Shown: piece by piece, positions 26,287 through 57,292 of the stretch
Position numbering within the stretch: position 1 is the stretch's first letter
Layout of the letters: every line of letters starts with the position of its first letter
Origin: Patescibacteria group bacterium
GTDB lineage: Bacteria; Patescibacteriota; Patescibacteriia; CAIXNZ01
Assembly: GCA_041651155.1 (NCBI GenBank)
Contig: JBAZJU010000001.1
Span: forward strand, 261,596 to 325,595
DNA: 64,000 nt
Direction: 5' to 3'
Translations under genes and position numbers: made by a program
Notes under the pieces: model-generated
Databases searched by the model: none
Seen by the model: only the letters and a program-made list of their open reading frames with translations
Told to the model about the DNA's origin: nothing

Positions 26287-26386
26287 CGATTGTAAAACGG
26301 TTGTAAGATTGTAGTAATACAGTTGTAGGACATTGTAAAACAATTGTATTACTATGTCTTACTATTATCTTACAATCACCAATTTA
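26287..26386. repeat. TTGTAAGACAA-unit palindromic element T1
   Basis: gattgtaaaacggttgtaagattgtag...tgtcttactattatcttacaatc; direct units then their reverse complements. Confidence 0.6.
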
Positions 26387-27457
26387 TTCATCAGCTTCTT
26401 TGAGGGCATTAATTATTGGCGCAAGATCTCCATCCAAAATTTTCGGCATATTGTGCCAGCTTTCTTTGATGCGATGATCCGTAATTCTGTCCTGAGGAAA
26501 ATTATAGGTCCTGATTTTTTCCGCGCGCATGGCAGTGCCGATTTGGATTTTTCTTTTGGCTCTGAGTTCTTTCATCTTTTTTTCTTCTTCATAGGCAAAG
26601 AGGCGTGAACGCAGAATTTCCATGGCTTTTTCTCTGTTTTGCAATTGAGATCTTTCATCCTGGCAGGAAACTACGATGCCAGAAGGATTATGCACGATTC
26701 TAACAGCTGAATATGTGGTGTTAACACTTTGCCCGCCGTGGCCGCCTGAGCAAAAAGTATCAATTCTTAAATCTTTCGGGTCAATTTTAAAGTCCACCTC
26801 TTCAATAATCGGCAAAACTGCGACTGAAGCAGTTGAGGTATGGACACGGCCGCTTTTTTCAGTTGCCGGCACTCTTTGGACTCTATGAACGCCGCTTTCA
26901 TATTTCATGTCTCCGTAAACATCATGCCCTTTGATTTCAGCAATGACTTCTTTCAGGCCGCCGATTCCAATTTGATTGGACGAAAGCATTTGCACGCTCC
27001 AGCTTTTGCTTTCCGCATAACGGGAATACATGCGAAAAAGTTCAGCGGCAAATAAAGCTGCTTCATCTCCGCCTGCGCCAGCTCTTATTTCTAAAATCAC
27101 ATCTTTTTTATCATGCGGATCTTTGGGCTTGAGAAATAATTTGATTTCATTTTCAATTTTTGCTTTTTCAGGAATAAGCTTGGACAGCTCTGATTCAGCC
27201 AGTTCTTTTAACTCTTTTATTTTCAATGATTCATTGGCCTCATCAATGCCCTGATCAATTTTTTGCAATCTAATGATTTTTTTGTATACGTCATTATAAT
27301 CTGCAAATTCACGGCTGATTTTTTTATATTCTGCCGCATTATTAATAATAGCAGGATCCTGGAGCTGCTTTTGGAGTTGGTTGTATTTGTCTAGGATTTT
27401 TTGATATTCAGGGTTGTTCATAGGATGTGGAATATCTGAAACACGGATTAATTTCAC
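26384..27457 (-). CDS. prfA: peptide chain release factor 1
   Basis: GGQ motif ([12 protein letters not shown]) and PAT tripeptide (RF1-type). Confidence 0.9.
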
Positions 27458-27674
27458 AGATTAACACTGATAAATAATTCTCGTTGGTATCTGTGAAATC
27501 AGCCCGCCTTGCTCGCTATTAATTCGGATTATTAAGAAAATAAAGGGATCAAGGCAAGCGAGGCAGGTGATAAAAAATCCGTGGTTTTATTATAACACAA
27601 AACCCCCATTTAGTCGGGGGTTATGTTTTATAACAATAACCTCCTTCGCGTAAAAACGAAGGTAGGGGTAGTAG

Positions 27675-27959
27675 TTATTTTTTTGTTTTCTTGGCTTTTT
27701 TCGCAGACTGGGCAGCTTTTTTAACCTTTTTGCCTTTTCTGGCAATGGCTAATTCAGCTTTTTTTGCCACTCTTTGTTTGAATCTATCAACGCGGCCGGC
27801 AGTGTCAACCAGCTTTTGTTTGCCGGTATAAAATGGATGGCAAGCTGAACAAAGTTCAACTTGTATTTCAGGCGCAGTTGAGCCCACTATAAATTCATTG
27901 CCGCAGGCGCAAATTACCTTGGCTTTGTCATAGTATTTCGGATGGATTTCTTTTTTCAT
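27675..27959 (-). CDS. rpmE: 50S ribosomal protein L31 (with Lys-rich C-terminal tail)
   Basis: [10 protein letters not shown]...CxC...[13 protein letters not shown]. Confidence 0.8.
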
Positions 27960-29079
27960 AATGGTGATTAATTTTTGAATATATTAAACTTATCATAAAA
28001 AATAATATTTGGCAAGTAGGTGTACAAGATGAGTACATAGGTAACACTTTAGAATATTGAAGGGGTGTTTGGTAATTTAAGGAATAATGAGGCCTGCGGA
28101 AATTGTATTCAATAAGCCATTCGGTCAAGGCCTTGTTGAATTGCTTAACATCGGGATTAAAGTTACCCATGTCCAGAAATTCAGTTTCCAACGTCTGGTT
28201 AAACCTTTCACAGTCGGGGTTGTCCTTTGGGGTTCTGATTCTGCTGAAGTACTGCTTGATGCCAAGCTTCAGGCAAGCCTGTTGAAAGTACTTTTTAAAT
28301 TCAGTTCCGTTATCATGGCCGACTCGGGGAATCTGTCCATCCAGCAAATAATTGAACCTGTAAAGAAAATCCTCTCCATTTTTTGAAGTCTTGGTATGAT
28401 AGGATCTGGCATAAGCAAATTTACCATATTTATCTATCGCTGTAAAAACATAACGCTTTAATTTCAGCCGGTAAATTGTAATCGTATCAAGGCAAATGAT
28501 ATACCCCGCTTTTTTCTTGTAACTCGGCAGCTTGCCCACTAGTTCGATTGTTCTTTTCTTCCTCCCCATTTTCTTCGTTTGAGCCCGTTTTTTGCTGGTT
28601 TTATCCGTTTTGGAGTGATTGTAATACAAGCGGTACTTTTTGATTGTATACTGGACTTTCCAGGCGCTGATTTTGACCCCGAATTCACTCTCGTAAATCC
28701 TAGCAATTTTTTCCTTGCCGTACCTGATACGATCTTTGCGTAAGGCAATAATCCTGCTTTCTTCTAAAGGCGTAATTTCTCTGTGCCGAACATGCTTAGG
28801 CGCTCGGGATCTGTCTGCCAGCTTGTATAGGCTGTAAAGGTTGTCTTCATCAAATTCCTTAAACCATTTGTAGAATGTTTTAGGGGCGATGTCAAAATGG
28901 CGGCTGGTTTCCGCGGGGCTATGGTCATAGCTGTAAATTATCCAATCAAGACGCTGCTTTGCCTCTTTTGAGACCTTAAGTATCTTGGCTACCTTACGCC
29001 ATCTTTCAAATTTATTTAAAAGCTTTATTTCGGGAACAAGATAATATGGAGCTATTTTTTTAACATGTGGTGCTAGCAT
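27928..29079 (-). CDS. IS481-family DDE (rve) transposase
   Basis: N-terminal HTH with YKWFKEF...[10 protein letters not shown]...SP; DDE core DNGTEF ... [16 protein letters not shown]; ORF has no stop inside the IS and runs about 31 codons past the IR into the rpmE start. Confidence 0.8.
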
Positions 29080-29171
29080 AGTTGATGAGATTAGGTATTT
29101 AACCCTTCATTTTGCCCTTTTTGCCTATTTTAGGCAATCTAGAAGTGTTACCTATGTATCTCATCTTCCGC
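28021..29171 (-). mobile_element. IS481-family insertion sequence (about 1.15 kb) with about 28-bp imperfect terminal inverted repeats
   Basis: IR caagatgagtacataggtaacactt at about 28024-28050 matches reverse complement of about 29140-29168; possible 8-9-bp direct repeat gcaagtagg / gcagtagg flanking. Confidence 0.65.
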
Positions 29172-29358
29172 AGTAGGCAAGATGATTGAGGCTAAAATTT
29201 GTGGGAATAAACTGCTTAAGCCTTGCATCAATTTTGTTTCTGTGATAAGATTCAAATCAAGTTTTATTTAATTTTAATTACTCATTTAATCTCCCACATC
29301 TGGTATTTTTCCTTGCCCTAATCGGGTGAAGCCGGATGGAGGTTAGAAAGGAAAAACT

Positions 29359-30066: not shown

Positions 30067-30091
30067 AAACTAAATATTAATTTTAAAAAAT

Positions 30092-30679: not shown

Positions 30680-30800
30680 AACACTGATTTTGTTCACAGA
30701 TTGACACTGATATTTGTAAATATCCATGATAATAATCAGCGGTTCCAGGTTTTTATCATATGCAGATTCGTGATTTATTCGTTAAATTCGCATTATATTT

Positions 30801-31595: not shown

Positions 31596-31687
31596 GATGC
31601 TTTTAAAAAGGTTAAAAATCCTCTATACTATAAATAGGGGATTTTTATAATCCTAAAAAGTCGCTTTAATTATCTCAATAAAAAAAT

Positions 31688-31996: not shown

Positions 31997-32022
31997 ATAC
32001 TTAATGATTAAAGCAAAAATTA

Positions 32023-33032
32023 TGACAAAGATAGTCGCAATTAATGGCTTTGGCCGGATTGGCCGCCAGGCCTATAAAGCGGCGATTGATCTTAAATCCA
32101 AATTTAAAGTAGTGGCTGTCAATGACTTAACCGATCCAGCGACTTTGGCTTACCTTTTAAAATATGATTCAGTCTATGGACAATGGAAAGGGCATAAGGT
32201 TTCAGCCACTAAAGATTCTATTATTGTTGATGGCAATAAAATCCAGGTTTTTGCGGAAAAAGATCCCGGCAAATTGCCCTGGAAAAAGTTAAAAATTGAC
32301 GTGGTTATTGAATCAACTGGTTTTTTTACTGAAAAGGAGGGCGCGAGCTTGCATTTGAAAGCAGGTGCGAAGGCAGTTGTTATTTCAGCGCCGACCAAAT
32401 CTGAAGATATAAATACTTTTGTGATTGGCGCAAATGAAAAAAAACTGAAAAAAGGTGAACAAATTATTTCCAATGCTTCTTGTACTACAAATTGCACTTC
32501 GCCCGTGATGTCTGTTTTAATGAACCGTTTTGGCGTAAAAAAAGCCATGTTAACGACTGTTCATGCTTATACCGCCACTCAAAAGCTCGTTGATGGCCCT
32601 GATGCCAAAGATCCAAGACGGGGCAGGGCAGCTGCGGTAAATATTGTGCCCTCAACCACTGGCGCTGCAAATGCGGTTATCCAGACTTTGCCTGAACTTA
32701 AAAATAAATTTGACGGTCTATCAATCAGAGTACCTGTTATAACAGGATCATTAATTGACGTGACAGCGCTATTAAAGAAAAAAGTTACTGTTAAGCAAGT
32801 TAATGATGCATTTATTAGTGCGTCAAAAAATCCATTATATAAAAAAATAATTGGTGTGACTTATGATCCGATTGTTTCCACTGACACAATCGGCACGACC
32901 TTGTCTGCGATTGTTGATTTGGGTACAACGAAGGTGGTTGACGGGGATTTGGTCAAGGTTTTGGCTTGGTATGATAATGAATATGGATATTCATGCCGTT
33001 TGGCTGAAATGGTGGAAATGGTGAAGATCTGA
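32023..33032 (+). CDS. gap: glyceraldehyde-3-phosphate dehydrogenase (type I)
   Basis: MTKIVAINGFGRIGR start (track ORF begins upstream at 31896); SNASCTTNC active site. Confidence 0.9.
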
Positions 33033-33176
33033 ATTATGAACTCTGAATTATGAATTATGAAATATTGATATATTAAGCGCTTCAGTAAAATGGGGCGCTT
33101 TTTCTTGACAATAAAAAAAATACGTGTTTAGATTTATTTAAGAAGAATACAATTGATCTTTAAAAAGGAGGAAAAA

Positions 33177-33593: not shown

Positions 33594-33674
33594 AAGAAGT
33601 TAACTGGCGAATAAGGAAATGCATTAAGCGTTTCCTTTTTTATTATCTCAAATTTTGATATAATTAGAGCAGTT

Positions 33675-34736: not shown

Positions 34737-34824
34737 GGAGGTTTGTGTAAATGGTTCGGTTTAATGATTAATTAATAATTTTTAATTTTTAAAGAATTTT
34801 TAATAATTTAATGATTAAATTCTT

Positions 34825-35205
34825 ATGGGGGAAAAGAAAAATGGCGTATTTGATTTAGAGGAAAGAACTGGTAAATTCGGCGAAGAGATTATTGATTTTG
34901 CTAAGACTTTGCCTGAAACAATTATCAATAAACCATTAATTAATCAATTGGTAAGATCAGGAACTAGTCTTGGTGCAAACTATATGGAAGCCAACGGCGC
35001 AGAATCAAAGAAGGATTTTGTTCATAAAATTTCAATTTGTAAAAAGGAATCGAAAGAAACAATGCATTGGTTGAGAATGCTTGCTAAAGCTAACCCGGCC
35101 AGGAAAGAAGATTGTGGCAAGCTTTATCAAGAAGCGCACGAATTAACCAAAATATTTGTCAAAATATTAAGTTCATGTAAGAAAAATGGTAATAAGGATA
35201 ATTAA
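34825..35205 (+). CDS. four-helix-bundle protein (23S rRNA intervening-sequence protein family)
   Basis: LVRSGTSLGANYMEANG...SKKDFVHKISICKKESKETMHWL family signature; flanked by AT-rich inverted repeats. Confidence 0.6.
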   Translation: MGEKKNGVFDLEERTGKFGEEIIDFAKTLPETIINKPLINQLVRSGTSLGANYMEANGAESKKDFVHKISICKKESKETMHWLRMLAKANPARKEDCGKLYQEAHELTKIFVKILSSCKKNGNKDN

Positions 35206-35282
35206 ATCATTATAACATTAGCCATTGATTAAAAATTAATAATTAATAATTAGAAATTAGACCCGACATTTATTGATTAACT

Positions 35283-40027: not shown

Positions 40028-40775
40028 AGGTGTTTTGCGCTGCGCCAGATATGCATTTATGCCCAATTATTTCGCCTATTGCGGGCCTGATAAAAACAAG
40101 GCGCTCTTTGAGTATTGCAGCCAAAATTATTTTGAGCCGACTTTACAAAATATTTTGTCAGAATTTGAAGTAATGCACCCTTATTTAAAATTAATTGCCA
40201 GAGAAAATAGGATTAAAGATGAATTTGACCCAGAAGTTGTTGAGGCCTATTGGCTTGGCAATAATTTAATTGAGAATGTGCAAATTAAAAAGTTGTACAG
40301 GCATTTTACAGAGGATAAAAATCTAAAAGCAAAATTGCCAACTTCTGTGGCAGAAAAAGTTTTAGGTTTAGCGCCTCAAATGACAAAGCCGCATCATAAT
40401 TTTCATGTCATGAATATCTGGTTGCGCGCCGGTAAGGTAAATATTATGCACACCTTGAAATCAATTGATGAATGCAGGATTTCCTGGGGTAAAATTAAAA
40501 AAATAAAAAAATCATCCATTTTGGTTGATTACAAGCCTTTAATTATAAAAGATGATAAAATAACTTTAGGCGATACATTAGAACGAGAAGTTTTAACCCA
40601 GTTTGCGGATAAAGGATTTGTTAAAGATTTAAAAATCGGGGATATTGTGACAATTCACTGGGGCTGGGTCTGTGAAGTAATTAATAATTCACAATTAAAT
40701 AATTTGCAAAAATATACACAAGAAAGTTTGAATATTTTTAATGAGCAGGGGAAGGAATTTATATGGGGAGGGTGA
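39996..40775 (+). CDS. hypothetical protein
   Basis: 259 aa ORF. Confidence 0.4.
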   Translation: MSKLIPQNSIEGVLRCARYAFMPNYFAYCGPDKNKALFEYCSQNYFEPTLQNILSEFEVMHPYLKLIARENRIKDEFDPEVVEAYWLGNNLIENVQIKKLYRHFTEDKNLKAKLPTSVAEKVLGLAPQMTKPHHNFHVMNIWLRAGKVNIMHTLKSIDECRISWGKIKKIKKSSILVDYKPLIIKDDKITLGDTLEREVLTQFADKGFVKDLKIGDIVTIHWGWVCEVINNSQLNNLQKYTQESLNIFNEQGKEFIWGG

Positions 40776-40842
40776 AGAAGGTAAATTGATAGTAAGACAA
40801 TGGTAAGACAATTGTAAGACAGTGGTAAGACAATGGTAAAAA
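40770..40842. repeat. TTGTAAGACAA-unit element T2 (direct-unit half)
   Basis: tagtaagacaatggtaagacaattgtaagacagtggtaagacaatggtaaa. Confidence 0.6.
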
Positions 40843-40866
40843 AATTATAAAATAAAAACAAAAATC

Positions 40867-41250
40867 ATGGAATTAAATAATTTGGAAATCTATAAATTGG
40901 CTGTGGAAATTGCCGAAGAATGCTGGCCAATATATTCAGAATTTGATTGGCAAACCAAGAAGTTGATGGGCGATCAATGGATGCGGGCGGTTGATTCTAT
41001 GGGAGCTAATATTTCTGAAGCAAATGGCCGTTATCATTTTTTGGACAGAAATAGATTTTATTACGTCGCTCGCGGTTCTTTAAAGGAGTCTGTCCATTGG
41101 ACTAATACTTTATATAAACGTGAAAAACTTACTGAAATGCGATATAACTCAATATTTGGGAAGCTTAAGAATTTGGATGTAAAATTAAATAATGCGATAA
41201 CTTCTACCTATAAGACGAAACAAGACGAAGGGCAACGGAATCGTTTGTAA
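40867..41250 (+). CDS. four-helix-bundle protein (23S-IVS protein family)
   Basis: AVDSMGANISEANGRYHFLDRNRFYYVARGSLKESVHW signature; flanked by T2 and T3. Confidence 0.6.
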   Translation: MELNNLEIYKLAVEIAEECWPIYSEFDWQTKKLMGDQWMRAVDSMGANISEANGRYHFLDRNRFYYVARGSLKESVHWTNTLYKREKLTEMRYNSIFGKLKNLDVKLNNAITSTYKTKQDEGQRNRL

Positions 41251-41350
41251 GACGATTGTAAGACTATTGTAAGACAATGGTAAGGCAGCTGTAAGATCGT
41301 GGTAAAACAATTGTATTACAATATATTACCATGGTATTACAATCGTTTTA
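41241..41350. repeat. TTGTAAGACAA-unit palindromic element T3
   Basis: tgtaagacgattgtaagactattgtaagacaatggtaagg...caattgtattacaatatattaccatggtattacaatcg. Confidence 0.6.
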
Positions 41351-41374
41351 TTCGCCTAATTCCAAGCAAACATT

Positions 41375-42157
41375 ATGAAGTCAAAAAACAGATTAAAACC
41401 CCACGTCGCCATCTTCGGACTAACAAGCTGTGAAGGTTGTCAATTCTCTCTCTTGGATTTGCATGAGAAATTTTTAGAATTAACCAGCTATATTGAATTG
41501 GATGAATTTAGATTAATTGAGGATGAAAAAGAACGCTCACATTATGATATTGCTTTTATTGAAGGCAATCCTGTGACCACGGAGAATTTGCATATTTTAA
41601 AACGCATTAGGAAAATTTCAGATGTGGTGGTTGTTTTAGGCAACTGCGCTGATTTAGGCGGGGTTTGGGAAATAAAAAATTACCATGATTTTAAAAAAAT
41701 AGGCTGTTATGTTTACAAATCATGCAAGACAATTGAAAATAGGGAAGTAGTAGAAGTGCCCAAGGCCATTAAGGTTGATTATGTAATTCCTGGCTGCCCG
41801 ATTAATGCCCAGAATTTTTTAGATTTGGTATATAATCTTATAAACAAAAAACCCTGGGCTTTGAAGATGAATCCGGTTTGCTGGGAATGCCAGATTAATA
41901 AAAACCCTTGCCTTTTGCAGGAAGGGAAGATTTGTCTGGGGCCAATTGCTTTAGCTGGCTGTAATGCAGTCTGTTTGAATTCGCGTCAGGAATGCTGGGC
42001 GTGCCGGGGAATTTTAGATCAATCAGATGAGAAAATCAGGAATTTGATTAAGATTTTACAAAATCATGGTTATAGCCTGGCTGATATTTTAGAGAAAATG
42101 GAATTTTTTGGAGCACGAGATAGAATTGAAGCTGCCATGAAAAAGGCAAATGACTGA
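41375..42157 (+). CDS. hydD: [NiFe] hydrogenase small (delta) subunit-like
   Basis: N-terminal GLTSCEGCQFSLLDL, GNCADLGG; multiple Cys clusters; 260 aa. Confidence 0.65.
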   Translation: MKSKNRLKPHVAIFGLTSCEGCQFSLLDLHEKFLELTSYIELDEFRLIEDEKERSHYDIAFIEGNPVTTENLHILKRIRKISDVVVVLGNCADLGGVWEIKNYHDFKKIGCYVYKSCKTIENREVVEVPKAIKVDYVIPGCPINAQNFLDLVYNLINKKPWALKMNPVCWECQINKNPCLLQEGKICLGPIALAGCNAVCLNSRQECWACRGILDQSDEKIRNLIKILQNHGYSLADILEKMEFFGARDRIEAAMKKAND

Positions 42158-42211
42158 GGAAATAAAGCTAAGAGACTTGACAATCATTATATTAAATTGT
42201 ATACTCCATTC

Positions 42212-42390
42212 GCGGAACAAACTGCAGCCCAAAAAGCGGCATACGGGAAGCTGTATAAGTTTCGCAACCCTCCTTTTGTAGCGCTGAGTCCTAGGTCTCG
42301 GGAAATGACTGTCGCCCAACAGTCATATATCAGGGCGGGCTCAGCGCTGAAAACTCTGGGGGAACATTAATTGTTCCCCCTTTTAAATTT
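42212..42390 (+). ncRNA. candidate sRNA unit 1 (own promoter TTGACA-N17-TATACT at 42177-42205; intrinsic terminator 42358-42390)
   Basis: promoter and gggggaacattaattgttccccc+TTTT terminator read directly; structured core gcgctgag...atgactgt/acagtcat...ctcagcgc. Confidence 0.45.
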
Positions 42391-42456
42391 CTTATGTTAA
42401 AACTTGCTTGGAAGCGTCTTATTGACAAAGTTTCCAAAATGTATATAATTTAGATG

Positions 42457-42592
42457 AAGCCTGTTGTCACTGCAGGCTTCTCCTCAAAGCGCTGAGCTTA
42501 GATCTCGGGTATGACTGCTACCGTCACATATTCAGGCTGGGCTCAGAGCAAGCAAATTCGGGAGAGCGTATTATCGCTCTCCCTTTTAAATT
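42457..42592 (+). ncRNA. candidate sRNA unit 2, paralogous to unit 1 (promoter TTGACA-N16-TATAAT at 42423-42450; terminator 42560-42592)
   Basis: shares about 65-nt conserved core and identical TTTTAAATT tail with unit 1; 5' hairpin gaagcctg/caggcttc. Confidence 0.45.
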
Positions 42593-42607
42593 ATTAAAAA
42601 AGAAAAA

Positions 42608-42636
42608 GGCGAGATTGCTCTCGCCCTTTTATTTTT
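42608..42636. terminator. bidirectional terminator (ggcgagattgctctcgcc flanked by A/T runs)
   Basis: hairpin with T-run on both strands; follows minus-strand gene 42647-43099. Confidence 0.5.
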
Positions 42637-42646
42637 TAGTTCTTAG

Positions 42647-43099
42647 CTATGCCGCTAATGTTTTTCTGGTTGATTTTCCTTCTTTGAAGGCTTGTAACGA
42701 GCTAAGAAGATTTTCCCTTATTTGCCAGTTGCTTTTGTCTGCCATTTCAATGGCTTTGCCAGTTTGAACGATAAGCGCGGCTACTTGTTCTTCAAGTGAT
42801 CGCTCAGCTGGAAAACGTTTGGCATAAGGGCCGGGAATTTCGTTGTCGTGGTCTGTCCCGCAATTGCATGTTCCACCATCATCGATAAACGAGCCGCATC
42901 TAGCGCATCGATTACCGAATCGACCAGGATATGATGCCCGGTTGAATTCGATGAGGAAGGGTTTTTCGCCGATAAATTCTGCAAGAGCATTAAATACCGG
43001 CTGGGTTTGATGTTTACACCGAGTCCCTCTCTGGAGCAAGGAAATGGCGCAGGCACATAAGGTGCCTAACTTTTCCGCGTGGTTGGTCGCAGCAACCAT
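42647..43099 (-). CDS. hypothetical Cys-rich protein
   Basis: 150 aa; CARCGSFIDDGGTCNCGTDHD cluster; G/C-rich codons. Confidence 0.45.
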   Translation of the reverse strand: MVAATNHAEKLGTLCACAISLLQRGTRCKHQTQPVFNALAEFIGEKPFLIEFNRASYPGRFGNRCARCGSFIDDGGTCNCGTDHDNEIPGPYAKRFPAERSLEEQVAALIVQTGKAIEMADKSNWQIRENLLSSLQAFKEGKSTRKTLAA

Positions 43100-43333
43100 T
43101 TTAAATACCTCCGGTTTGTTGTTAATGTTTTTCTTTTGCTAATGGTATTAGCACTAGCAAAGAGCTTCTTTGCTTTTATCATAATAATTACTTAAAATTT
43201 TGTCAAATTTGGGTTTTTAAAGATTTTTGGTATAATGTTTATAGAATAAAGCAGTAAGAATTTAGAATATAGAAGAAATTCGTAATTGTTGTATTCTTTG
43301 TTCTATATTCTTAATTCTTAATTCTAAAAAAAT

Positions 43334-43561
43334 ATGACTGAATTTTTATCATTTGACTTGCAAACAGCTTACAATGAAATCAAAAAACGCGCTGAAGAGG
43401 CGCCAGTGACTAATAAAGAGGCCTGGGATGAAATGGTTGATGATTATATTACTGAAAGGTTAGAAGTTGGGGAATTAGATTTGGATAATGACAGCCAGGG
43501 GATGATTGAAGAACTAAAGTCAATGTGGTCTGAATATGAAAAAAATCTGAATATAAGATAA
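43334..43561 (+). CDS. hypothetical small acidic protein
   Basis: 75 aa ORF. Confidence 0.35.
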   Translation: MTEFLSFDLQTAYNEIKKRAEEAPVTNKEAWDEMVDDYITERLEVGELDLDNDSQGMIEELKSMWSEYEKNLNIR

Positions 43562-43612
43562 CAGAACCACGAAATTTTATCACTAAATAACACGAAAATT
43601 AATTTAATGTAA

Positions 43613-44851
43613 ATGAACAAGTGGTTAAAAATTTTAGTTATTGTTTTTGTCATTCTTGCCATCGGGCTAGCTGGTATTGTTATTTATTTTTATCCGCAGA
43701 TTGGGCCGGCTTTTGGTCAGCCAGTGGCAGATGTGAGTAAATTATTAAATGCGAATAATAATACGAATGTAAATAATAATGCGAATATTGCGAATGATGC
43801 GAATGTCGCGAATGTGGTTCCGGAAGTTATAACGCCAACTGTTCAGGGTCCATTTACGATTTTGGGTAATTTTAAAATTGATGTATTTGCCAAGGATTTG
43901 AATACGCCAAGAGTATTGCTTTTTGATGATCAAGGTAGTTTGCTGGTTTCAGCCATGGGCGAGGGCAAGGTTTATGCAATTAAATCCGATGGCTCAAAAG
44001 TTGTCATAGCTTCAGGTTTGAATAATCCGCATGGTCTGGCCATTGATAACGGTTATTTATATATTGCTGAAACAAACAAAGTCAGCCGTTATACTTATGA
44101 TTCAGCCAACTTAAAATTAGGCAATAAAGAATTTTTGTTTAATTTGCCAAGCGGAAGCGGACATTTTACCAGAACATTGCAATTTGGCCCCAATGGATTT
44201 TTATATGTGTCAGTTGGCTCATCCTGCAATGTTTGCCATGAAACTGATGAGCGCAGAGCTACGATTTTAAAATATGACCCGTCCAATTGGTCTTATGAAA
44301 TTTTTGCTAAAGGCTTGAGAAATACTGTTTTCTTTATTTTAAATCCCAGGACCAAGCAGTTTTGGGGCAATGATATGGGGCGTGACAATTTGGGCGATAA
44401 TTTGCCGCCAGATGAATTTAATATTTTAAGTGCTGGCAAAAATTATGGCTGGCCAATTTGTTATGGCCAGAAAATTAATGATCGCAATTTTGATAAAAAT
44501 GTTTATATCCGTGATCCTTGCGCTGATTCAGTGGCACCGATTTATGAATATGGCGCGCATAATGCGCCGCTTGGCCTAACTTTCATTGATTCAAAAAAGT
44601 TCCCAGCAAGTTGGCAAGGAGATTTACTTGTAGCATTACATGGTTCCTGGAATAGTTCAGTACCAGTTGGTTATAAAGTTGTGCATTTGAAAATTGATGG
44701 CAATAAAGTTGTCAGCTCTGAAGATTTTATAACTGGATTTTTAACTTCAGCTGGAGTAATTGGCAGGCCTGTTGATTTGGTGTTTGGGAAAGATGGTGCG
44801 CTTTACCTCTCTGATGACAAAGCAGGGGTAATTTATCGGATTTATCGGTAA
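43613..44851 (+). CDS. PQQ-dependent sugar (glucose/sorbosone) dehydrogenase-like beta-propeller protein, membrane-anchored
   Basis: N-terminal TM, Asn-rich linker, then NNPHGLAID...KNYGWPICYG family blocks. Confidence 0.55.
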   Translation: MNKWLKILVIVFVILAIGLAGIVIYFYPQIGPAFGQPVADVSKLLNANNNTNVNNNANIANDANVANVVPEVITPTVQGPFTILGNFKIDVFAKDLNTPRVLLFDDQGSLLVSAMGEGKVYAIKSDGSKVVIASGLNNPHGLAIDNGYLYIAETNKVSRYTYDSANLKLGNKEFLFNLPSGSGHFTRTLQFGPNGFLYVSVGSSCNVCHETDERRATILKYDPSNWSYEIFAKGLRNTVFFILNPRTKQFWGNDMGRDNLGDNLPPDEFNILSAGKNYGWPICYGQKINDRNFDKNVYIRDPCADSVAPIYEYGAHNAPLGLTFIDSKKFPASWQGDLLVALHGSWNSSVPVGYKVVHLKIDGNKVVSSEDFITGFLTSAGVIGRPVDLVFGKDGALYLSDDKAGVIYRIYR

Positions 44852-44855
44852 TAAG

Positions 44856-44940
44856 ATGATTGTAAAACAATGGTAATATGGTGGTAAGACAGTGGTAAAA
44901 CAATTGTATTACAATATCTTACAACTGTCTTACAATCGTC
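44856..44940. repeat. TTGTAAGACAA-unit palindromic element T4
   Basis: gattgtaaaacaatggtaatatggtggtaagacagtggtaaaacaa|ttgtattacaatatcttacaactgtcttacaatcgtc. Confidence 0.6.
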
Positions 44941-45045
44941 CATCCCTTGACATTTTTATAAAAATGAACTAAGCTAAAATATCAAGAGTTCTTTAAGGCA
45001 TCAGTTTATACTTAATTCTAAACAAAGTAAATAAGGAGGTAAATA

Positions 45046-45342
45046 ATGTTAATAGATGAAAAAGATGAAAGGTGTTCTGAAGAGTCAATAATCATGAGTG
45101 GATGTAAAAAGCGAGATGAATTATGGGAATCTCTGCATATGAATAAAGAGGCAAATAGCCCATTAACAGAAGTTGAATGGGATATGTTAATGAAGCATGT
45201 CGAGGAGTGTGATATTTGTAGAGAGTCATTCGCGGCATTTCATCAACTCCTGGAAACACATGGAAAGGAGATAGTGGAGGGTATGATAGATGATTGGCCG
45301 GAATTAAGGAGAGAAATACTATCTCCGAAATGTCTTCATTAA
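45046..45342 (+). CDS. small zf-HC2 (anti-sigma ZAS-like H-x3-C-x2-C) protein
   Basis: LTEVEWDMLMKHVEECDIC; RBS aaggagg. Confidence 0.45.
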   Translation: MLIDEKDERCSEESIIMSGCKKRDELWESLHMNKEANSPLTEVEWDMLMKHVEECDICRESFAAFHQLLETHGKEIVEGMIDDWPELRREILSPKCLH

Positions 45343-48094: not shown

Positions 48095-48119
48095 TAGCTA
48101 ATTAGTAGATTAGTAACCT

Positions 48120-48374: not shown

Positions 48375-48487
48375 CGAAAACGGCACGAGACCTGTACTTT
48401 ATAGCGGACTTTAGTCCGCGAAGGCCTGGTATTACCTTACGGGGACTAAAGTCCCCTGTAAATTATTATTATACGGCGTTTTCGCCC
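48374..48487 (+). other. about 114-nt structured element (closing stem gcgaaaacggc/gccgttttcgc enclosing two 7-bp hairpins), possible complex terminator or ncRNA
   Basis: hairpins gcggacTTtagtccgc (48404-48419) and ggggactAAagtcccc (48441-48456); T-run after closing stem. Confidence 0.35.
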
Positions 48488-48516
48488 TATTCCATTTTTT
48501 CTGTTATAATATACTT

Positions 48517-49716: not shown

Positions 49717-49748
49717 TTCTTAATACTTAATTCTTAATTTTAAAACTT

Positions 49749-50516: not shown

Positions 50517-50639
50517 TGAAAGAGTAAAATGGGTAAAAGGGGTCATCCTACGCTAAAGCTTCGGATGACAGGTAAAAATGGAATTAATATAATAAATTTA
50601 TTTAATCACAAATTTATTTTTTGTATATTTGTATTAGAT

Positions 50640-50683
50640 TTGCCTTCGCAAACCGTAGTTTGCTACGGCAAACGAAGGTTTGT
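50640..50683. repeat. 44-bp palindromic repeat A1 (identical copy at 52058-52101)
   Basis: ttgccttcgcaaaccgtagtttgctacggcaaacgaaggtttgt. Confidence 0.75.
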
Positions 50684-50696
50684 AATTTTGTAGTGT

Positions 50697-51959: not shown

Positions 51960-52057
51960 CAAATCACAAAACTCTAAAGACAAAATAAAAAAAAATTATA
52001 AATCTAAAATTCAATTTTTTGTTATTTAATATTTGTGTTTTAAATTTATTTTGTCTT

Positions 52058-52101
52058 TTGCCTTCGCAAACCGTAGTTTGCTACGGCAAACGAAGGTTTG
52101 T
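52058..52101. repeat. 44-bp palindromic repeat A2
   Basis: exact 44/44 match to A1. Confidence 0.75.
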
Positions 52102-52200
52102 CCTTTGTTCTTTTGAATTTTCATATAGAAGCCACGGCGATTTTTCAGCTGCGGTTTTTTTATTTGAAAATAATAGCATTTTGAGGTAGAATATAGATAT

Positions 52201-53775
52201 ATGAAACAGGACAAAAATATTGATTTTTTGCCTATAGTTTTAGTTATATTAGATGGCTGGGGCATTGCGCCAGCTTCAAAAGCCAATCCAATTTCTCAGG
52301 TTAAAAAGCCAAATTGGGATTTTTTTAATAAAAAATTTTCCCACACCGAATTGATTGCTTCTGGCTTAAAAGTCGGCTTGCCAAAAAACCAAGATGGCAA
52401 TTCAGAAGCAGGCCATATGAATATCGGCGCTGGCAGGATAGTTAAACAAGAGGCAGTCTTGATTGATGAAGCCATTAAAAATGGAACATTTTTTAGAAAT
52501 CCAGCGTTATTAGAAGCAGTCAGTTGGGCTAAGAAAAATAAATCAAATTTACACTTAATGGGTTTATTATCCAATGGTGAGAGTGCTCATTCTGACCCGC
52601 TTCATTTGTACTCGCTTTTGGAACTAATGAAAAGAGAAAAATTTGAACGAATTTATTTGCATCTTTTTACTGATGGACGCGATTCATCACCGCATGCAGC
52701 TTCACGTTTGGTCAGTAAACTGATAAATAATTTTAAAAATCATGAAACAATATCAACTATCGTGGGACGCTTTTATGCAATGGATCGCATAAAAAAATGG
52801 TCAAGAACAGAAATGGCCTATAATGCCATGGTTTTAGGCATTGGCCTGGCATCTGATAATCCTTATAAAGCCGTGAGTGAAGCCTATAATCGGGGAGAGA
52901 CAGATGAATTTATTTCTCCGATAATAATTTTAAATCCCCAAAAGAAACCCAAATTTATAAACGATAATGACGCGGTTATATTTTTTAATTTAAGGTCTGA
53001 TCGTGCCAGACAAATGGCTAAGCCTTTTGTCCAAAAACAATTTGAAAAAGATAATCTGGGCGCATTTAAAAGAAAAAAAGTTTTAAAAAATGTAAAGTTT
53101 ATTGCCCTGACTGATTTTGGCCCGGATTTAGACAGCATAATGACTGCTTTTCCTAGCGTGATTCTAAAAAATACCTTGCCTTTGGTTTTAAAAAAGTATC
53201 GCCAGCTATATCTGGCAGAACGAGAAAAATACGCTCATGTCACATATTTTTTCAATGGCGGACATGGCCAGCCTGTTAATGGCGAAAAATGGCTGGTGAT
53301 TCCATCTCTTGGAACGAATTATTTAAAGCATCCTCAGATGTCAATTCATCCTTTAACTAATATAATTTTAAAAAATTTGCAAAATAAAAAATATGATTTT
53401 ATAGCAGTAAATTTTGCGAATGCGGATATGATCGGTCACACTGGTGATTTCAAAGCAGCGCTTAAAGTTATAAAAATTATTGATACTTGTTTAGGAAAAA
53501 TATACAAGGCTGTCTCTAAGGCAAATGGCACCTTGCTGATAACCGCTGATCACGGCAATATAGAGGAAATGATTAATTTAAAAACAGGGGAGGAGGATAC
53601 GGAACATAGCGCAAATCCCGTGCCGTTTATTATTATTAACAACTATTGGCAAAATAAATTAAAATTAAAAAACAGCGGCATCTTGGCAGATATTGCTCCT
53701 ACTATTTTACAGCTTACTGCAGTTAAAAAACCCAAGGAAATGACAGGTACGGGATTAATAAAAAATAAAGTATAA
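52201..53775 (+). CDS. gpmI: 2,3-bisphosphoglycerate-independent phosphoglycerate mutase (copy 1)
   Basis: 524 aa; ILDGWG, SEAGHMNIGAG, ADHGN. Confidence 0.85.
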   Translation: MKQDKNIDFLPIVLVILDGWGIAPASKANPISQVKKPNWDFFNKKFSHTELIASGLKVGLPKNQDGNSEAGHMNIGAGRIVKQEAVLIDEAIKNGTFFRNPALLEAVSWAKKNKSNLHLMGLLSNGESAHSDPLHLYSLLELMKREKFERIYLHLFTDGRDSSPHAASRLVSKLINNFKNHETISTIVGRFYAMDRIKKWSRTEMAYNAMVLGIGLASDNPYKAVSEAYNRGETDEFISPIIILNPQKKPKFINDNDAVIFFNLRSDRARQMAKPFVQKQFEKDNLGAFKRKKVLKNVKFIALTDFGPDLDSIMTAFPSVILKNTLPLVLKKYRQLYLAEREKYAHVTYFFNGGHGQPVNGEKWLVIPSLGTNYLKHPQMSIHPLTNIILKNLQNKKYDFIAVNFANADMIGHTGDFKAALKVIKIIDTCLGKIYKAVSKANGTLLITADHGNIEEMINLKTGEEDTEHSANPVPFIIINNYWQNKLKLKNSGILADIAPTILQLTAVKKPKEMTGTGLIKNKV

Positions 53776-53782
53776 TCAATAT

Positions 53783-55372
53783 ATGAAATTAAAAAATCGT
53801 CCAGTTGTTTTAGTTATATTAGACGGCTGGGGTGTTGCGCCGGCATCACCTGGCAATGCCATTACTCAAGCTAAAACGCCAAATCTGGATAAATTTATCG
53901 GTACTTATCCAGCAATGACTCTTGTTGCGTCTGGCGATGCTGTTGGTTTGTCTTGGGGTGAAATGGGGACTTCAGAAGTCGGCCATACCAATATAGGTTC
54001 AGGTACAATTTTTTATCAAAGCTTGCCGCTTATAAGTAAAACTATTGCAGACGGCGCTTTTTTTACGAATCAGGCTTTTTTAGATGCTGCAAATCACGTC
54101 AAGAAATACAAATCAAAATTACATCTGCTTGGCCTGGTTAGCAATGGAGGTGTGCATTCTCATATAGACCATTTATACGGTTTATTGGAATTTGCCAAAA
54201 AACAGCAAATAAAAGAAGTCTATATACATGTAATTTTGGATGGCCGAGATTCAATTTTTAACAGCGGTTTAGGTTTCGTTAAAGAGCTTTTAGCAAAGAT
54301 TAAGGAATTAAAAGTAAATGCTAAAATCGCCACCATTTCCGGACGTTTTTATGCAATGGATCGCGATAATCATTGGGAAAGGTTGCAAAAAGCCTTTTGG
54401 GCCATGACCAAAGGCGAGAGTGAACAAAAATTTTCTGATCCGATTAGGGCAATTGAAGCTTCTTATGAAAATAAAATTTATGATGAAGAATTTATTCCGA
54501 CTGTGATTACCAATAAAAATAGGCCAGTCGGCCTGATAGAAGACAATGATGCTGTTATTTTTTTTAATTTTCGGGCAGACCGCGCTCGGCAATTGACTCA
54601 GGCCTTTGTCTTGCCTGATTTTAGCAAATTTGAACGCCCAATTAATTATAAAAATTTGTTTTTTGTCAGTATAATGCAATATGACAAGGATTTGCCTGTA
54701 GATAAAATTGCTTTTTTTTCAGCGGAAATTACCAACCCTTTAGCCAAAGTTTTAAGTACGGCAGGCTTAAAACAATTACATATCGCTGAGACTGAGAAAT
54801 ATGCGCACGTAACTTTTTTCTTTAATGCCGGAGTGGAAGCGCCCTTTCCTGGAGAAGATCGGATTGTTATCCCGTCTCCGCGTATTGCGTCATATGCTGA
54901 CAAGCCAGAAATGTCAGCCTCAAAGGTTACGGACGAAGTATTAAAAGCCATTGAAGCAAATACCTATGATTTTATAGTTATAAATTTTGCCAATGCTGAT
55001 ATTGTAGCGCACACCGGCAATCTAAAGTCAACCATTAAGGCTTGTGAAATAATTGATAAATGTTTAGGCAAAATAGCAGCCTTGGTTTTAACAAAAAATG
55101 GAGTAGTTTTGGTTACGGCTGATCATGGCAATGCTGAGGAATTACAAAATATAAAAACAGGGGAAATTGATAAAGAACACAGCACAAATCCCGTCCCATT
55201 TATTATCATCGGGCATGATTGGGAGGGAAAAAATTTAGGCTTGCCTGATAGCATGGGCTCTGACTTAAGCTTGGTCACTCCGTCGGGTGTGCTCTCGGAT
55301 ATTGCGCCAACAATTTTAAAATTAATGGGTGTTAAAAAACCGCCGGAAATGACCGGGACTTCTTTGATATAG
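53783..55372 (+). CDS. gpmI: 2,3-bisphosphoglycerate-independent phosphoglycerate mutase (copy 2, tandem paralog)
   Basis: 529 aa; ILDGWG, SEVGHTNIGSG, ADHGN. Confidence 0.85.
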   Translation: MKLKNRPVVLVILDGWGVAPASPGNAITQAKTPNLDKFIGTYPAMTLVASGDAVGLSWGEMGTSEVGHTNIGSGTIFYQSLPLISKTIADGAFFTNQAFLDAANHVKKYKSKLHLLGLVSNGGVHSHIDHLYGLLEFAKKQQIKEVYIHVILDGRDSIFNSGLGFVKELLAKIKELKVNAKIATISGRFYAMDRDNHWERLQKAFWAMTKGESEQKFSDPIRAIEASYENKIYDEEFIPTVITNKNRPVGLIEDNDAVIFFNFRADRARQLTQAFVLPDFSKFERPINYKNLFFVSIMQYDKDLPVDKIAFFSAEITNPLAKVLSTAGLKQLHIAETEKYAHVTFFFNAGVEAPFPGEDRIVIPSPRIASYADKPEMSASKVTDEVLKAIEANTYDFIVINFANADIVAHTGNLKSTIKACEIIDKCLGKIAALVLTKNGVVLVTADHGNAEELQNIKTGEIDKEHSTNPVPFIIIGHDWEGKNLGLPDSMGSDLSLVTPSGVLSDIAPTILKLMGVKKPPEMTGTSLI

Positions 55373-55395
55373 GAAATAGGTAATATGAAATATGT

Positions 55396-55509
55396 CCGGC
55401 TTCGGCTCATTAATATCTAATAGGATGAGAAATTTGCGAACTCATGCCGAGACGAGTAATATGGATTGGCCTTCGCCAACCGAAGTTGGCTTCGGCCAAC
55501 GAAGGTTGG
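55396..55509. repeat. composite repeat: ccggcttcggctca...gccgagacgag element plus CCTTCG...CGAAGG palindrome (A3)
   Basis: shares 14-mer and 11-mer with 936-1000; A3 = ccttcgccaaccgaagttggcttcggccaacgaaggttgg. Confidence 0.6.
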
Positions 55510-55572
55510 AAGATTTTAAAAATATAATATTCCTTTCCGTATTTCATATTACTTATTTCTTATTACATTCAT

Positions 55573-56439
55573 ATGCCCGAATTACCAGAAGTTGAGACAA
55601 TTAAACGCGGCTTGCAAAAAAGTATTGTTGGGAAAATTATTTCTGATTTTTCTTGTGATTGGCAGAAAATGATTAATTATAAAATTGCTGATTACAGATC
55701 GCGGATTAAAGGTTTGAAAATTATAAGCTTAAGGCGGCGGGCAAAGATGCTGATTATTGATTTAAGCAAATCACGGCATATTTTAATCCATTTAAAAATG
55801 ACTGGCCAATTAGTTTACGGCAGTAAAGTAAAATGTTTAGTCGGCGGGCACCCGATCAAAGAAGGTTTTGAATGTCTGCCGAATAAATTTACCCATGCGA
55901 TTTTTACGTTCACTGACAAAAGCCATTTGTATTTTAATGATATTCGCAAATTTGGCTGGTTGCGGCTTTATAACAGCAAACAGTTAATTGAACAATTAAA
56001 TAAAATGAAATTAGGACCAGAACCTTTATCTGCAGAATTTACTTTAGATTATTTGCAGTCGGCCATGAAAAAACGGCCAAATAATAAAATCAAGCAATTA
56101 TTAATGGATAATAAAATTGTAGTAGGCATAGGAAATATTTATAGCGATGAAGTATGTTTTTATGCCAGAGTCAGACCAGACCGCAAAGTCAAAAGTTTAA
56201 CAGCTAAAGAGATTAAATTAATTTATCAGGGCATTGGAAAAATTTTAACTGCGTCTATTAAAGCCCAGGGCACGACATTTAGCAATTATCGCAATGCCAA
56301 CGGGGAAGCAGGCGCTTATTCCAAGCAATTAAAAGTTTATGGCCGTTATGGCGAGAAATGCAAGCATTGTGGGACTATAATTAAAAAAATGACAATTGGT
56401 GGCAGGACATCATCATATTGCCCTAAAGATCAGAAATAA
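55573..56439 (+). CDS. mutM: formamidopyrimidine-DNA glycosylase
   Basis: MPELPEVE N-terminus; C-terminal zinc finger CKHCG...C. Confidence 0.85.
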   Translation: MPELPEVETIKRGLQKSIVGKIISDFSCDWQKMINYKIADYRSRIKGLKIISLRRRAKMLIIDLSKSRHILIHLKMTGQLVYGSKVKCLVGGHPIKEGFECLPNKFTHAIFTFTDKSHLYFNDIRKFGWLRLYNSKQLIEQLNKMKLGPEPLSAEFTLDYLQSAMKKRPNNKIKQLLMDNKIVVGIGNIYSDEVCFYARVRPDRKVKSLTAKEIKLIYQGIGKILTASIKAQGTTFSNYRNANGEAGAYSKQLKVYGRYGEKCKHCGTIIKKMTIGGRTSSYCPKDQK

Positions 56440-56443
56440 ATTT

Positions 56444-56785
56444 ATGGCTCAAGAAATTGCTTCAATTTCACTTAATAAGGATTTTGAGAGCATTAAAAAG
56501 ACAGATGACAATGGCATTGAATACTGGCAAGCAAGAGAATTAATGCCAATTTTAGGCTATAAAAAATGGGAAAATGCTGAAGAAGTCATTGGGAGGGCTG
56601 CTAGAGCTTGTATTAATAGCGGGCAGGCTGTGGATAACCATTTTCTCCAATTCAGGAAAATGGTTGATATTGGCTCAAATACAGTGAGGGGAATAACGCT
56701 AGAAAATTTACCTCCAGAAAAACATATCATGGAATTGAAAAACGATAAAAAGAAAATATTAAATGCAAAGAATAGAAAAATATAA
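56444..56785 (+). CDS. DinD-like (BRO-N domain) protein
   Basis: YWQARELMPILGYKKWENAEEVIGRAARAC resembles DinD N-terminal region. Confidence 0.45.
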   Translation: MAQEIASISLNKDFESIKKTDDNGIEYWQARELMPILGYKKWENAEEVIGRAARACINSGQAVDNHFLQFRKMVDIGSNTVRGITLENLPPEKHIMELKNDKKKILNAKNRKI

Positions 56786-56789
56786 ACTT

Positions 56790-57206
56790 ATGGTTTACAA
56801 TGATAATTTTACAACTGAAACAAAGGGCTGTTGTGATGTCCGGGATATTACCAGCCAAGTTAAAAAGATAATTGAAGATTCAAAAATTCAAAATGGTTTG
56901 GTTTTAGTTTTTGTCACAGGCTCAACCGCTTCCATCTCAACCATGGAAATCGGAGCAGAATTAGATAAGGATTTAAAGGAAGCGATGGAAATAATCGCGC
57001 CAGAAGGCAAGCATTACAACCACGATGATAAATGGCAGGATGGCAATGGATTTTCCCATATTCGCTCAACTATTATTGGCACACATTTAACATTGCCATT
57101 AATTAATGGCGAGCCTGTTTTGGGCAACTGGCAGCAGATTGTTTTACTTGATTTTGATAATAAAAAAAGGGACAGGCTAGTAACTGTCCAGATTGTGGGG
57201 GAATAA
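56790..57206 (+). CDS. YjbQ-family (UPF0047) protein
   Basis: CCDVRDITSQV...GLVLVFVTGSTASI...GNWQQIVLLDFD. Confidence 0.6.
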   Translation: MVYNDNFTTETKGCCDVRDITSQVKKIIEDSKIQNGLVLVFVTGSTASISTMEIGAELDKDLKEAMEIIAPEGKHYNHDDKWQDGNGFSHIRSTIIGTHLTLPLINGEPVLGNWQQIVLLDFDNKKRDRLVTVQIVGE

Positions 57207-57209
57207 GAT

Positions 57210-57292
57210 ATTATTGTAATACAATTGTAAAACAATAGCAAAAAGATTGTAAGACAATTGTTTTACCAAAGTATTACTATTGTCTTACCATT
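57210..57292. repeat. TTGTAAGACAA-unit palindromic element T5
   Basis: attgtaatacaattgtaaaacaat...gattgtaagacaattgttttacc...ctattgtcttacca. Confidence 0.55.

Follow-up and report, generated by a model that had tools for sequence, protein, structure and literature searches.

The window analysed here, a 64,000-nt stretch of a Patescibacteria contig with a G+C content of ~36%, carries between its protein-coding genes a dispersed family of repeat elements in whose arms an 11-bp unit, TKGTAARACAR, is repeated in tandem arrays. Two of these arrays enclose a gene of the 23S_rRNA_IVP family (PF05635; hereafter, IVP), and the remaining elements contain no open reading frame (ORF) of their own. The sequence of the window matches, with full identity, part of a 293,782-bp metagenome-assembled contig (ENA ERZ27247363 k141_799758). 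The product of prfA, release factor 1, is 77-83% identical to proteins labelled Candidatus Parcubacteria or Candidatus Buchananbacteria. Rfam detected no rRNA in the window, with zero matches at the gathering thresholds over its whole length, and an ARAGORN scan found no tRNA or tmRNA. E-value-based Rfam scans of positions 40600-45100 and 12100-13900 returned only chance matches to miRNA-like hairpins.

Defining the core heptamers of the family as GTAA[AGT]AC / GT[ACT]TTAC, we counted 38 in the window, against 15.1 +/- 3.7 expected from first-order Markov simulations. They form exactly five clusters (at least four cores per 100 nt), with a core-to-core spacing of 11 nt and occasionally 10, whereas no cluster appeared in 300 simulations. 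The five repeat loci of the original prediction thus all exist, at its coordinates or within a few bases of them, and constitute one genome-lineage-specific family of inverted-repeat elements with tandem 11-bp-unit arms; that they are dispersed imperfect palindromes in very short intergenic gaps is likewise borne out for the family. Each element had been described as direct units followed by inverted ones, forming a hairpin. Four loci conform, being imperfect palindromes of 86-94 nt, or with 43-nt arms, whose self-complementarity is 71-79% and which fold beyond shuffled sequences (RNA z -3.4 to -6.3, DNA z -3.4 to -4.7). The locus at 40770-40842 does not: it is purely direct, with four to five units, no inverted half and no fold (z = +0.13), and its inverted partner lies at 41312-41350. 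The family, therefore, does not comprise five equivalent elements, since two of them (40782-40842 and 41245-41350) are the arms of a single gene-carrying cassette.

This cassette (40776-41374, 599 bp) is located between a DUF6390 gene and the gene encoding a hydrogenase small subunit (Oxidored_q6). Its left arm begins 6 nt past the DUF6390 stop codon (40773-40775), and its right element stops 24 nt short of the Oxidored_q6 start (41375). A 40-nt portion of the left arm (40782-40821) is inverted-complementary to 41312-41350, 490 nt away (77.5%). The left arm is also repeated directly at 41254-41315 (62 nt), so that the gene in the cassette loop, IVP#2, is flanked by both a direct and an inverted repeat, and the TAA stop of this gene falls within the first unit of the right element. 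The right element forms a hairpin by itself (RNA -34.4 kcal/mol, z -4.6), and its inverted half also pairs with the left arm; with a loop in place of the ORF, the two flanks fold jointly at -42 kcal/mol.

The product of IVP#2 matched the Pfam profile PF05635 (E=4.5e-20) and TIGR02436 ("four helix bundle protein", E=1.5e-18). Its AlphaFold model shows four helices at pLDDT 90, and Foldseek retrieved 2GSC and 2RLD (TM 0.76-0.88), that is, XCC0516 and BT_0352 of the S23 ribosomal protein family, followed at greater distance by Avd (4DWL/8UB7, TM 0.71-0.83), a protein of diversity-generating retroelements (DGRs). No relative of IVP#2 was found among viral contigs. A second IVP gene, IVP#1 (34825-35205, 126 aa, PF05635 E=1.1e-17), occupies a cassette of a different repeat family between the hydrogenase genes Fer4_22 and NAD_binding. 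An AT-rich inverted repeat of 74 nt (34748-34821 / 35200-35272, 76%) brackets it, and the joint fold of the two arms, with the ORF again swapped for a loop, is -35 kcal/mol. We scored the inverted symmetry around each gene by local alignment of the 150 nt upstream with the reverse complement of the 150 nt downstream. Among 66 window genes (median 18), IVP#1 had the top score (54) and IVP#2 was joint second (31). Both cassettes share two features with the intervening sequences (IVSs) of 23S rRNA, namely a PF05635 ORF inside and terminal inverted repeats enclosing it.

Comparison with relative or homologous loci from other genomes (designated L006, L009, L020, L097, L189 and so on) revealed that the cassette is polymorphic. 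In L189/L190 and L191/L192 (small subunit 85-86% identical), the 599-nt cassette is missing, DUF6390 and Oxidored_q6 overlap by 8 nt, and there is no hairpin at the junction. The IVP#2 cassette is, thus, an insertion between operon genes that are translationally coupled in relatives without it. The same junction carries a cassette with the same units and layout in L196, where the IVP is 72% identical, and another in L194, where the units have diverged to TKGTAATT and the IVP is 64% identical. In L006, an IVP 75% identical to IVP#2, with the same unit arms, is found at a different site, the Fer4_22|NAD_binding junction, which shows that the same IVP type with the same arms occurs at two different sites. 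That junction is itself variable: it holds the unrelated IVP#1 cassette in the window, is empty in L189 (1 nt) and contains unrelated ORF-less hairpins in L007 and L191. Across these genomes, the arm units diverge in step with the IVP protein, with GTAAGAC shared by the window, L196 and L006, and GTAATT found in L194. The empty sites that the original prediction proposed to look for in relatives exist for the ORF-bearing cassette and at the Fer4_22|NAD_binding junction, but not for the three ORF-less copies, which in relatives are replaced by other hairpins without clean empty sites.

We then asked how IVP genes are flanked elsewhere. An alignment of IVP#2 homologues led to 80 loci from GTDB genomes of taxa including Patescibacteria, Saccharibacteria, Bacteroidota, Cyanobacteria, Gammaproteobacteria and Campylobacterales, in which 78 IVP genes were scored. 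Their inverted-flank scores had a median of 35, with 41% at 40 or above, compared to a median of 16 and 1.3% for the 309 non-IVP genes of these loci (Mann-Whitney p=7e-37). Scored for direct repeats, the IVP flanks reached 16.5, and control genes whose gaps measured 60 nt or more on each side again scored 16. The arms nearly always consist of tandem short units that are specific to each genome (ATTGGGA x9, GTTGTCA, GTTAACT/G, GATATTG, and 10-11-mers such as ATAGAAATAA), as reflected in their internal periodicity, with a median self-shift identity of 0.76 vs 0.39 in controls and periods of 10, 7, 8 and 11. An extra copy of the arm sequence was present elsewhere in the ~6-kb locus in 8 out of 32 loci, against 0 out of 32 cross-locus controls; in L173, a solo hairpin of the same heptamers as the IVP arms follows the next gene. 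IVP genes shared their strand with both neighbours in 42 out of 55 cases, and other genes in 107 out of 173. No rRNA was found in the 20 best-scoring IVP loci. In the Dolichospermum and Kamptonema loci, the arms around the IVP genes are inverted heptamer arrays. These results show that inverted tandem arrays around IVP genes are an architecture general across bacterial phyla. Our literature search, which was incomplete, returned no description of IVP genes bracketed by inverted tandem arrays outside rRNA, and the arrangement may already be known. Genes of the PF05635/TIGR02436 type ("four helix bundle") abound in Bacteroidota, Cyanobacteria, CPR (Candidate Phyla Radiation) bacteria and others, and we know of no function for those outside DGRs. 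In relatives of the window, inverted repeats also bracket an inorganic pyrophosphatase gene, a 184-aa ORF and an 86-aa ORF (L006:12203-12231 / 12714-12742; L138:173-209 / 807-843; L003:13642-13683 / 14102-14142), and the cassette format may carry cargo other than IVP.

Table 1. Repeat elements and IVP genes of the window, with one tandem repeat that does not belong to the family
Feature	Position	Strand	Description
Left arm of IVP#2 cassette	40782-40842	+	direct array of 11-bp units TAGTAAGACAA TGGTAAGACAA TTGTAAGACAG TGGTAAGACAA TGGTAAAAAAA
IVP#2 gene	40867-41250	+	127 aa, PF05635 23S_rRNA_IVP / TIGR02436, S23p/Avd fold, in cassette loop
Right element of IVP#2 cassette	41245-41350	+	six direct then three to four inverted units, centre TGGTAAAACAATTGTATTACAA
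IVP#1 cassette	34748-35272	+	different repeat family, between hydrogenase genes Fer4_22 and NAD_binding
ORF-less hairpin, prfA-prmC gap	26288-26377	.	five direct and three inverted units, termini GATTGTAA...TTACAATC
ORF-less hairpin after GSDH/PQQ-type dehydrogenase gene	44855-44940	.	four direct and three inverted units, z -3.4
ORF-less hairpin between convergent UPF0047 and PAP2/DUF212 genes	57211-57304	.	core 57244-57290 then T7, z -6.3 / -5.0
9-bp tandem, not a family member	19848-19891	.	GTAAAAAGA x4.9, upstream of gyrB (17788-19830, minus strand)

The reading that we favour, with moderate confidence, is that the family consists of IVS-like insertion cassettes that occupy operon and gene junctions of a CPR genome; one of them contains an Avd-like gene and three do not. 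By analogy with IVSs, the elements would be co-transcribed with the neighbouring genes, and their arms would pair into an imperfect double-stranded RNA stem of 30-40 bp. This stem would be processed by RNase III, as in rRNA IVSs, which would render the insertion tolerable inside tightly packed operons and would either free the IVP message or leave a hairpin end. The long imperfect stems (30-40 pairs) are compatible in length, and no more than compatible, with an RNase III substrate. We infer transcription through the elements and their cleavage by this enzyme, as well as any role of the IVP protein and a mechanism by which the cassettes would spread at the DNA level.

A number of points weigh against this reading. 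The variable positions of the units do not covary: permuting them gives equally or more stable stems in 65% of trials (mean), and the innermost variable positions are paired in just 6-18% of copies. A selected RNA stem thus gains no support, since the pairing stems from the conserved, partly self-complementary core of the unit. Cleavage is argued from the analogy with rRNA, the family hairpins differ from the canonical terminators of this genome, and promoter-like hexamers (AAGACA-17/18-TACAAT) arise from the units, albeit weak ones (9/12 matches). The layout of the IVP#2 cassette, [A-array]-IVP-[A-array][A'-array], could reflect the insertion of a gene into a pre-existing hairpin arm. A single gain of the cassette at DUF6390|Oxidored_q6 was considered and discarded, as it does not fit the similarity pattern of the small subunit and DUF6390; the pairwise identities of the flanking proteins do not group the filled genomes, and more than one gain or loss is, therefore, needed. 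The 80-locus survey was seeded with a single IVP subfamily. No target-site duplication was found at 26288/26377, 44858/44937 or 57211/57304, and the cassette junctions offer no convincing one, just a TATG in common, of which the start codon is part. No recombinase, transposase or reverse transcriptase is encoded by the window ORFs that were examined, a set limited to those with Pfam calls.

This last set of results bears above all on the proposal, made in the original prediction, of non-autonomous mobile elements. As classical miniature inverted-repeat transposable elements (MITEs), the copies would depend for their movement on a transposase that acts in trans from another place in the genome. 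They do look the part as ~90-bp imperfect palindromes dispersed in intergenic DNA at several unrelated loci, at which assemblies frequently break; ORF-less and ORF-bearing forms do stand in a relation like that of non-autonomous to gene-carrying elements, and presence/absence polymorphism is observed. The termini GATTGTAA...TTACAATC, originally described as recurring, are common to three elements (26288, 41253 and 44858) but not to 57211-57304. The copies are not colinear, differing in the number and order of units, and since neither target-site duplications nor colinear full-length conservation nor, among the window ORFs examined, a transposase was found, the defining features of MITEs are missing. 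Moreover, the sole bracketed gene encodes a four-helix-bundle protein with no known catalytic motif, and orthologous copies persist in genomes whose proteins are ~77-80% identical. We regard classical MITEs as very unlikely.

The ORF-less elements provide a complementary view of the family. The one in the prfA-prmC gap lies 6 nt past the prfA stop (26384-26386) and 5 nt ahead of the likely prmC ATG (26282, minus strand), and it folds on either strand (RNA -33.2 kcal/mol, z -5.6; minus strand -29.9). It had been taken as co-opted into the 5' end of prmC. The 311-aa ORF as called (start 26333) does begin within the hairpin. However, prmC homologues are 286-304 aa long and start with MNIKDII, and an in-frame ATG at 26282 yields a 294-aa protein starting with MQIKQII. 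As this start fits the homologues, the 5' extension is an ORF-calling artefact, not co-option. On the prmC strand (26283-26300, minus), the hairpin ends in TACAAT with the prmC ATG 7 nt on, a possible, weak outward promoter; if TACAAT is a -10 box, transcription of prmC would start within the element and give a leaderless mRNA. In L009 and L006, the orthologous prfA|prmC gap holds family members with different unit numbers and, overall, this gap contains a 60-100-nt hairpin in six genomes, built from three unrelated unit families. The second ORF-less element begins 3 nt past the dehydrogenase stop (44849-44851), and the corresponding site after the GSDH gene in the syntenic relative L097 has an unrelated GC-rich hairpin. 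The third is associated with the stop codons of UPF0047 (57204-57206) and PAP2/DUF212 (57296-57298). Its L020 orthologue has an identical 52-nt core between flanking genes that are 76% identical at the nucleotide level, and L097 has the same family there with another unit order. In L097, the UPF0047 gene and ~700 nt (window 56447-57152) are missing, and the family hairpin still stands beside the PAP2 gene.

Further members were sought in JGI metagenomes with the shared centre TKGTAARACAATTGTHTTAC. The scan returned 99 stretches, ~15 of which contain further units and are true members, including the orthologous copies in L009, L006, L020 and L097; the other ~80 are single chance matches. The family, therefore, recurs beyond the window. 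About nine of these members have no other similarity to the window and are mostly located between co-directional genes, 2-20 nt from ORF ends. Hairpin sites are, in sum, conserved more than hairpin sequences.

Such conservation of sites could be expected from host RNA hairpins, acting as terminators, intercistronic processing sites or stabilisers of 3' ends, that lengthen through replication slippage and into which IVP genes insert secondarily. The elements begin 2-20 nt past stop codons, as such hairpins might, and both the prfA|prmC gap, with its three unrelated sequence families in six genomes, and the unrelated hairpin after the GSDH gene in L097 fit this explanation. So does the array layout of the IVP#2 cassette. 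There is a precedent in Geobacter metallireducens, where copies of IS110 and IS481 sit inside analogous paired tandem-repeat sites (PMC2700814). At DUF6390|Oxidored_q6, however, the cassette-less genomes have overlapping genes and no hairpin, so the arms arrived there with the gene. A role as terminators, one of the functions suggested originally, does not hold for most copies either. The recognisable terminators of this genome are short GC-rich stems followed by T runs, unlike the family, and a terminator scan of 40500-45200 flagged 42358-42380, 42560-42583 and 42603-42630, but not one of the family elements in that region. Only 57211-57304, which is outside the scanned region and has an AT-rich stem, is followed by a T run (T7, between convergent genes). 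In addition, the prfA-prmC hairpin ends 5 nt ahead of the prmC start, an unlikely place for a terminator, and the stems show no compensatory pattern. We consider host hairpins with secondary gene insertion a doubtful explanation, though one that deserves some weight, and retain the insertion of IVS-like cassettes as the preferred one.

The regularity of the units raises a different possibility, that of DNA-level protein-binding arrays (operator, nucleoid-protein or centromere-like), in which a period of 11 bp would make the conserved cores face the same side of the double helix. Within the unit, the core is conserved and a single position per half-turn is free to vary, with no pairing covariation, and the arms co-diverge with the IVP protein, as described above for GTAAGAC and GTAATT. 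The analogous tandem hepta-, octa- and nonanucleotide pairs of G. metallireducens have been read as IHF/HU sites (PMC2700814). Across phyla, however, most arm periods (7, 8 and 10 bp) do not correspond to a helical repeat, and what remains invariant between genomes is the inverted symmetry around the gene rather than a sequence motif. The window elements follow stop codons and lie between co-directional genes rather than in promoter regions. Binding arrays are, therefore, an improbable account, and the IVS-like cassettes are preferred here as well.

Finally, the elements could be functionless by-products of slippage and palindrome formation in the AT-rich intergenic DNA of a small genome. Tandem-unit palindromes are indeed generally characteristic of the intergenic DNA of this genome: at least 14 long ones, with many unrelated types of unit, lie between genes in the window, together with several strand-specific heptamer arrays. 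The lack of covariation is in line with this explanation as well. It sits poorly with the recurrence of one unit family at several sites in several genomes, with the 52-nt core that is identical in the window and L020 next to genes that are 76% identical, and with the association of inverted arrays with a single gene family across phyla (p=7e-37). We find it extremely unlikely, and IVS-like insertion remains the explanation that we favour.

This cassette interpretation could be extended to a widespread two-part system of IVPs and tandem-unit hairpins. An IVP pentamer would recognise the imperfect stem of its own arrays and the ORF-less copies found among operons, using the periodically unpaired variable bases as flipped-out contacts, as in the Avd-RNA complex, and would control RNA processing, stability or (retro)mobility; the 23S rRNA IVS would then be a special case of a far larger class. 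We offer this extension as speculation and consider it unlikely. The main interest of our results is that, across phyla, PF05635 genes are associated with inverted repeats made of tandem units. If IVP genes systematically ride such cassettes into operon junctions, three puzzles merge into a single problem that can be tested: how rRNA IVSs originated, what the paired sites of Geobacter (and possibly the heptamer arrays of cyanobacteria) are, and what role solo Avd homologues play. On a practical level, the hairpins break assemblies and cause false 5' extensions in gene calls, as in prmC, and their genome-specific units could serve as strain markers.

Other repeats were observed in the window. 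The tandem upstream of gyrB, suggested at the outset to be a distant relative of the family, was rejected as a member: it has a 9-bp period, no core match and no inverted partner, and only GTAA in common. In one relative, a Cas12f/TnpB-like gene (RuvC_1, TNB) adjoins gyrB (L008:18392-21035). Additional tandem-unit intergenic hairpins are located at 5677-5751, 43235-43333, 48395-48465 and 51976-52058, with units such as the 10-mer TACAGATATG after rplA (z = -9), the 7-mers TATAGAA/TATTCTT and others. A second dispersed repeat consists of tandem heptamers TGAATTA/TGAAATA (919, 5863, 7353-7373, 24006-24026 and 33030-33064), the strong copies of which are all on the + strand, start at or just past stop codons and have no inverted arm. 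In L003 and L008, the prfA|prmC hairpin is built from similar units, CTGAATT/AATTCCG, which also resemble Geobacter metallireducens sites of class 3 (MTYCTGA). The enolase gene is flanked on both sides by a perfect 45-nt direct repeat, TTTGCCTTCGCAAACCGTAGTTTGCTACGGCAAACGAAGGTTTGT, which is itself palindromic (50639-50683 and 52057-52101); a related CCTTCG...CGAAGG tandem is found at 55466-55509, and a similar one at L003:9775-9821. The ORF at 6518-7060 (- strand) is flanked by a 66-nt direct repeat (~85% identical, 6368-6433 / 7047-7111), and the gap ahead of the Fpg gene is bracketed by a 24-nt inverted repeat (55369-55392 / 55540-55563).

Among the other genes, a Ro60/TROVE and vWA gene (13829-15508, + strand) is preceded by ~1.6 kb without long ORFs (12170-13830), in which strong hairpins occur at 12189-12214, 12614-12663, 12848-12949 and 13389-13442. 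This stretch could encode Y-RNA-like partners of Ro60, a candidate role for which Rfam gave no support even at E<=1. The window also encodes a Translin-family protein (PF01997, E=8e-21; 59259-59837), a family whose presence in a CPR bacterium surprised us, and two tandem paralogues of cofactor-independent phosphoglycerate mutase (52201-53775 and 53783-55372).

Several known systems resemble the family in part. The Correia/NEMIS (Neisseria miniature insertion sequence) elements of Neisseria and the ERIC (enterobacterial repetitive intergenic consensus)/IRU (intergenic repeat unit) elements of enterobacteria are MITEs, that is, imperfect palindromes of ~100-150 bp that are co-transcribed from intergenic positions and form long hairpins, and Correia elements have been reported as RNase III substrates. 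They have defined terminal repeats, target duplications and colinear copies, none of which is found in the window family. Repetitive extragenic palindromes (REPs), organised as REP doublets forming hairpins (REPINs) and accompanied by a REP-associated tyrosine transposase (RAYT), are the closest architectural analogy for a gene plus dispersed ORF-less copies, as they too combine dispersed extragenic palindromes with a single gene flanked by inverted copies. Nevertheless, the gene flanked in the window encodes a PF05635 four-helix bundle, not an HUH Y1 transposase, and the repeats have no GTAG/CGTC head, are made of tandem 11-bp units and, at 60-110 bp, are two to three times longer than REPs (20-40 bp). 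The short tandemly repeated repetitive (STRR) sequences of cyanobacteria, reportedly described by Mazel et al. in 1990, are said to be intergenic arrays of tandem heptanucleotides. They share with our family the tandem short-unit arrays in intergenic DNA and differ in that the window units are 11-mers; to our knowledge, descriptions of STRRs as tandem repeats have not mentioned inverted pairing around a gene.

The DGR protein Avd forms a pentamer that binds an RNA stem-loop of 11 bp by way of flipped-out bases (bioRxiv 10.1101/2023.10.23.563531). The model of IVP#2 suggests a homologous fold, but IVP genes stand alone within hairpin cassettes. No reverse transcriptase domain was detected among the genes with Pfam calls, a set that does not cover all window ORFs, a template/variable repeat pair was not searched for, and nothing observed pointed to a DGR.

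The genome paper of G. metallireducens (Aklujkar et al. 2009) reported 24, 21 and 8 "paired sites" on opposite strands between operon genes, each with three to five octa-, nona- or heptanucleotide units in tandem and with ~100 bp or a variable distance in between (PMC2700814). They occupy gaps such as proB|proA, nifD|nifK and moaA|mosC, where the sister species has a different sequence, and were read as sites for the global regulators IHF/HU, with insertion sequences inside some pairs (PMC2700814). Like them, the window family has paired tandem arrays of short units, one array per strand, scattered between the genes of operons. Its units are, however, unrelated in sequence, and no link to IVP genes was drawn in that paper (PMC2700814).

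The best-described IVS, that of Coxiella burnetii, is a 428-nt insertion in helix 45 of 23S rRNA with an S23p ORF in its loop (PMC4990558). Its terminal inverted repeats pair up as a stem of 28 bp that is cut by RNase III in vitro, and its stem region contains three to four tandem GACAGAT heptamers whose copy number varies among strains (PMC4990558). The IVSs of Leptospira, Brucella and Haemophilus likewise encode S23p, whereas the Salmonella type is an ORF-less hairpin, and IVSs are viewed as selfish insertions that are tolerated because RNase III excises them (PMC4990558). The window elements differ from these in being located in putative mRNA operon junctions, not in helix 9, 25 or 45 of 23S rRNA, and the arms of the IVP cassettes are up to 40-75 nt long and made of repeated 7-11-nt units. 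Without an rRNA host, the cassettes are not IVSs in the strict sense; they are IVS-like in layout, with a PF05635/S23p ORF in the loop of a terminal-inverted-repeat stem, short tandem repeats within that stem and an ORF-less form.

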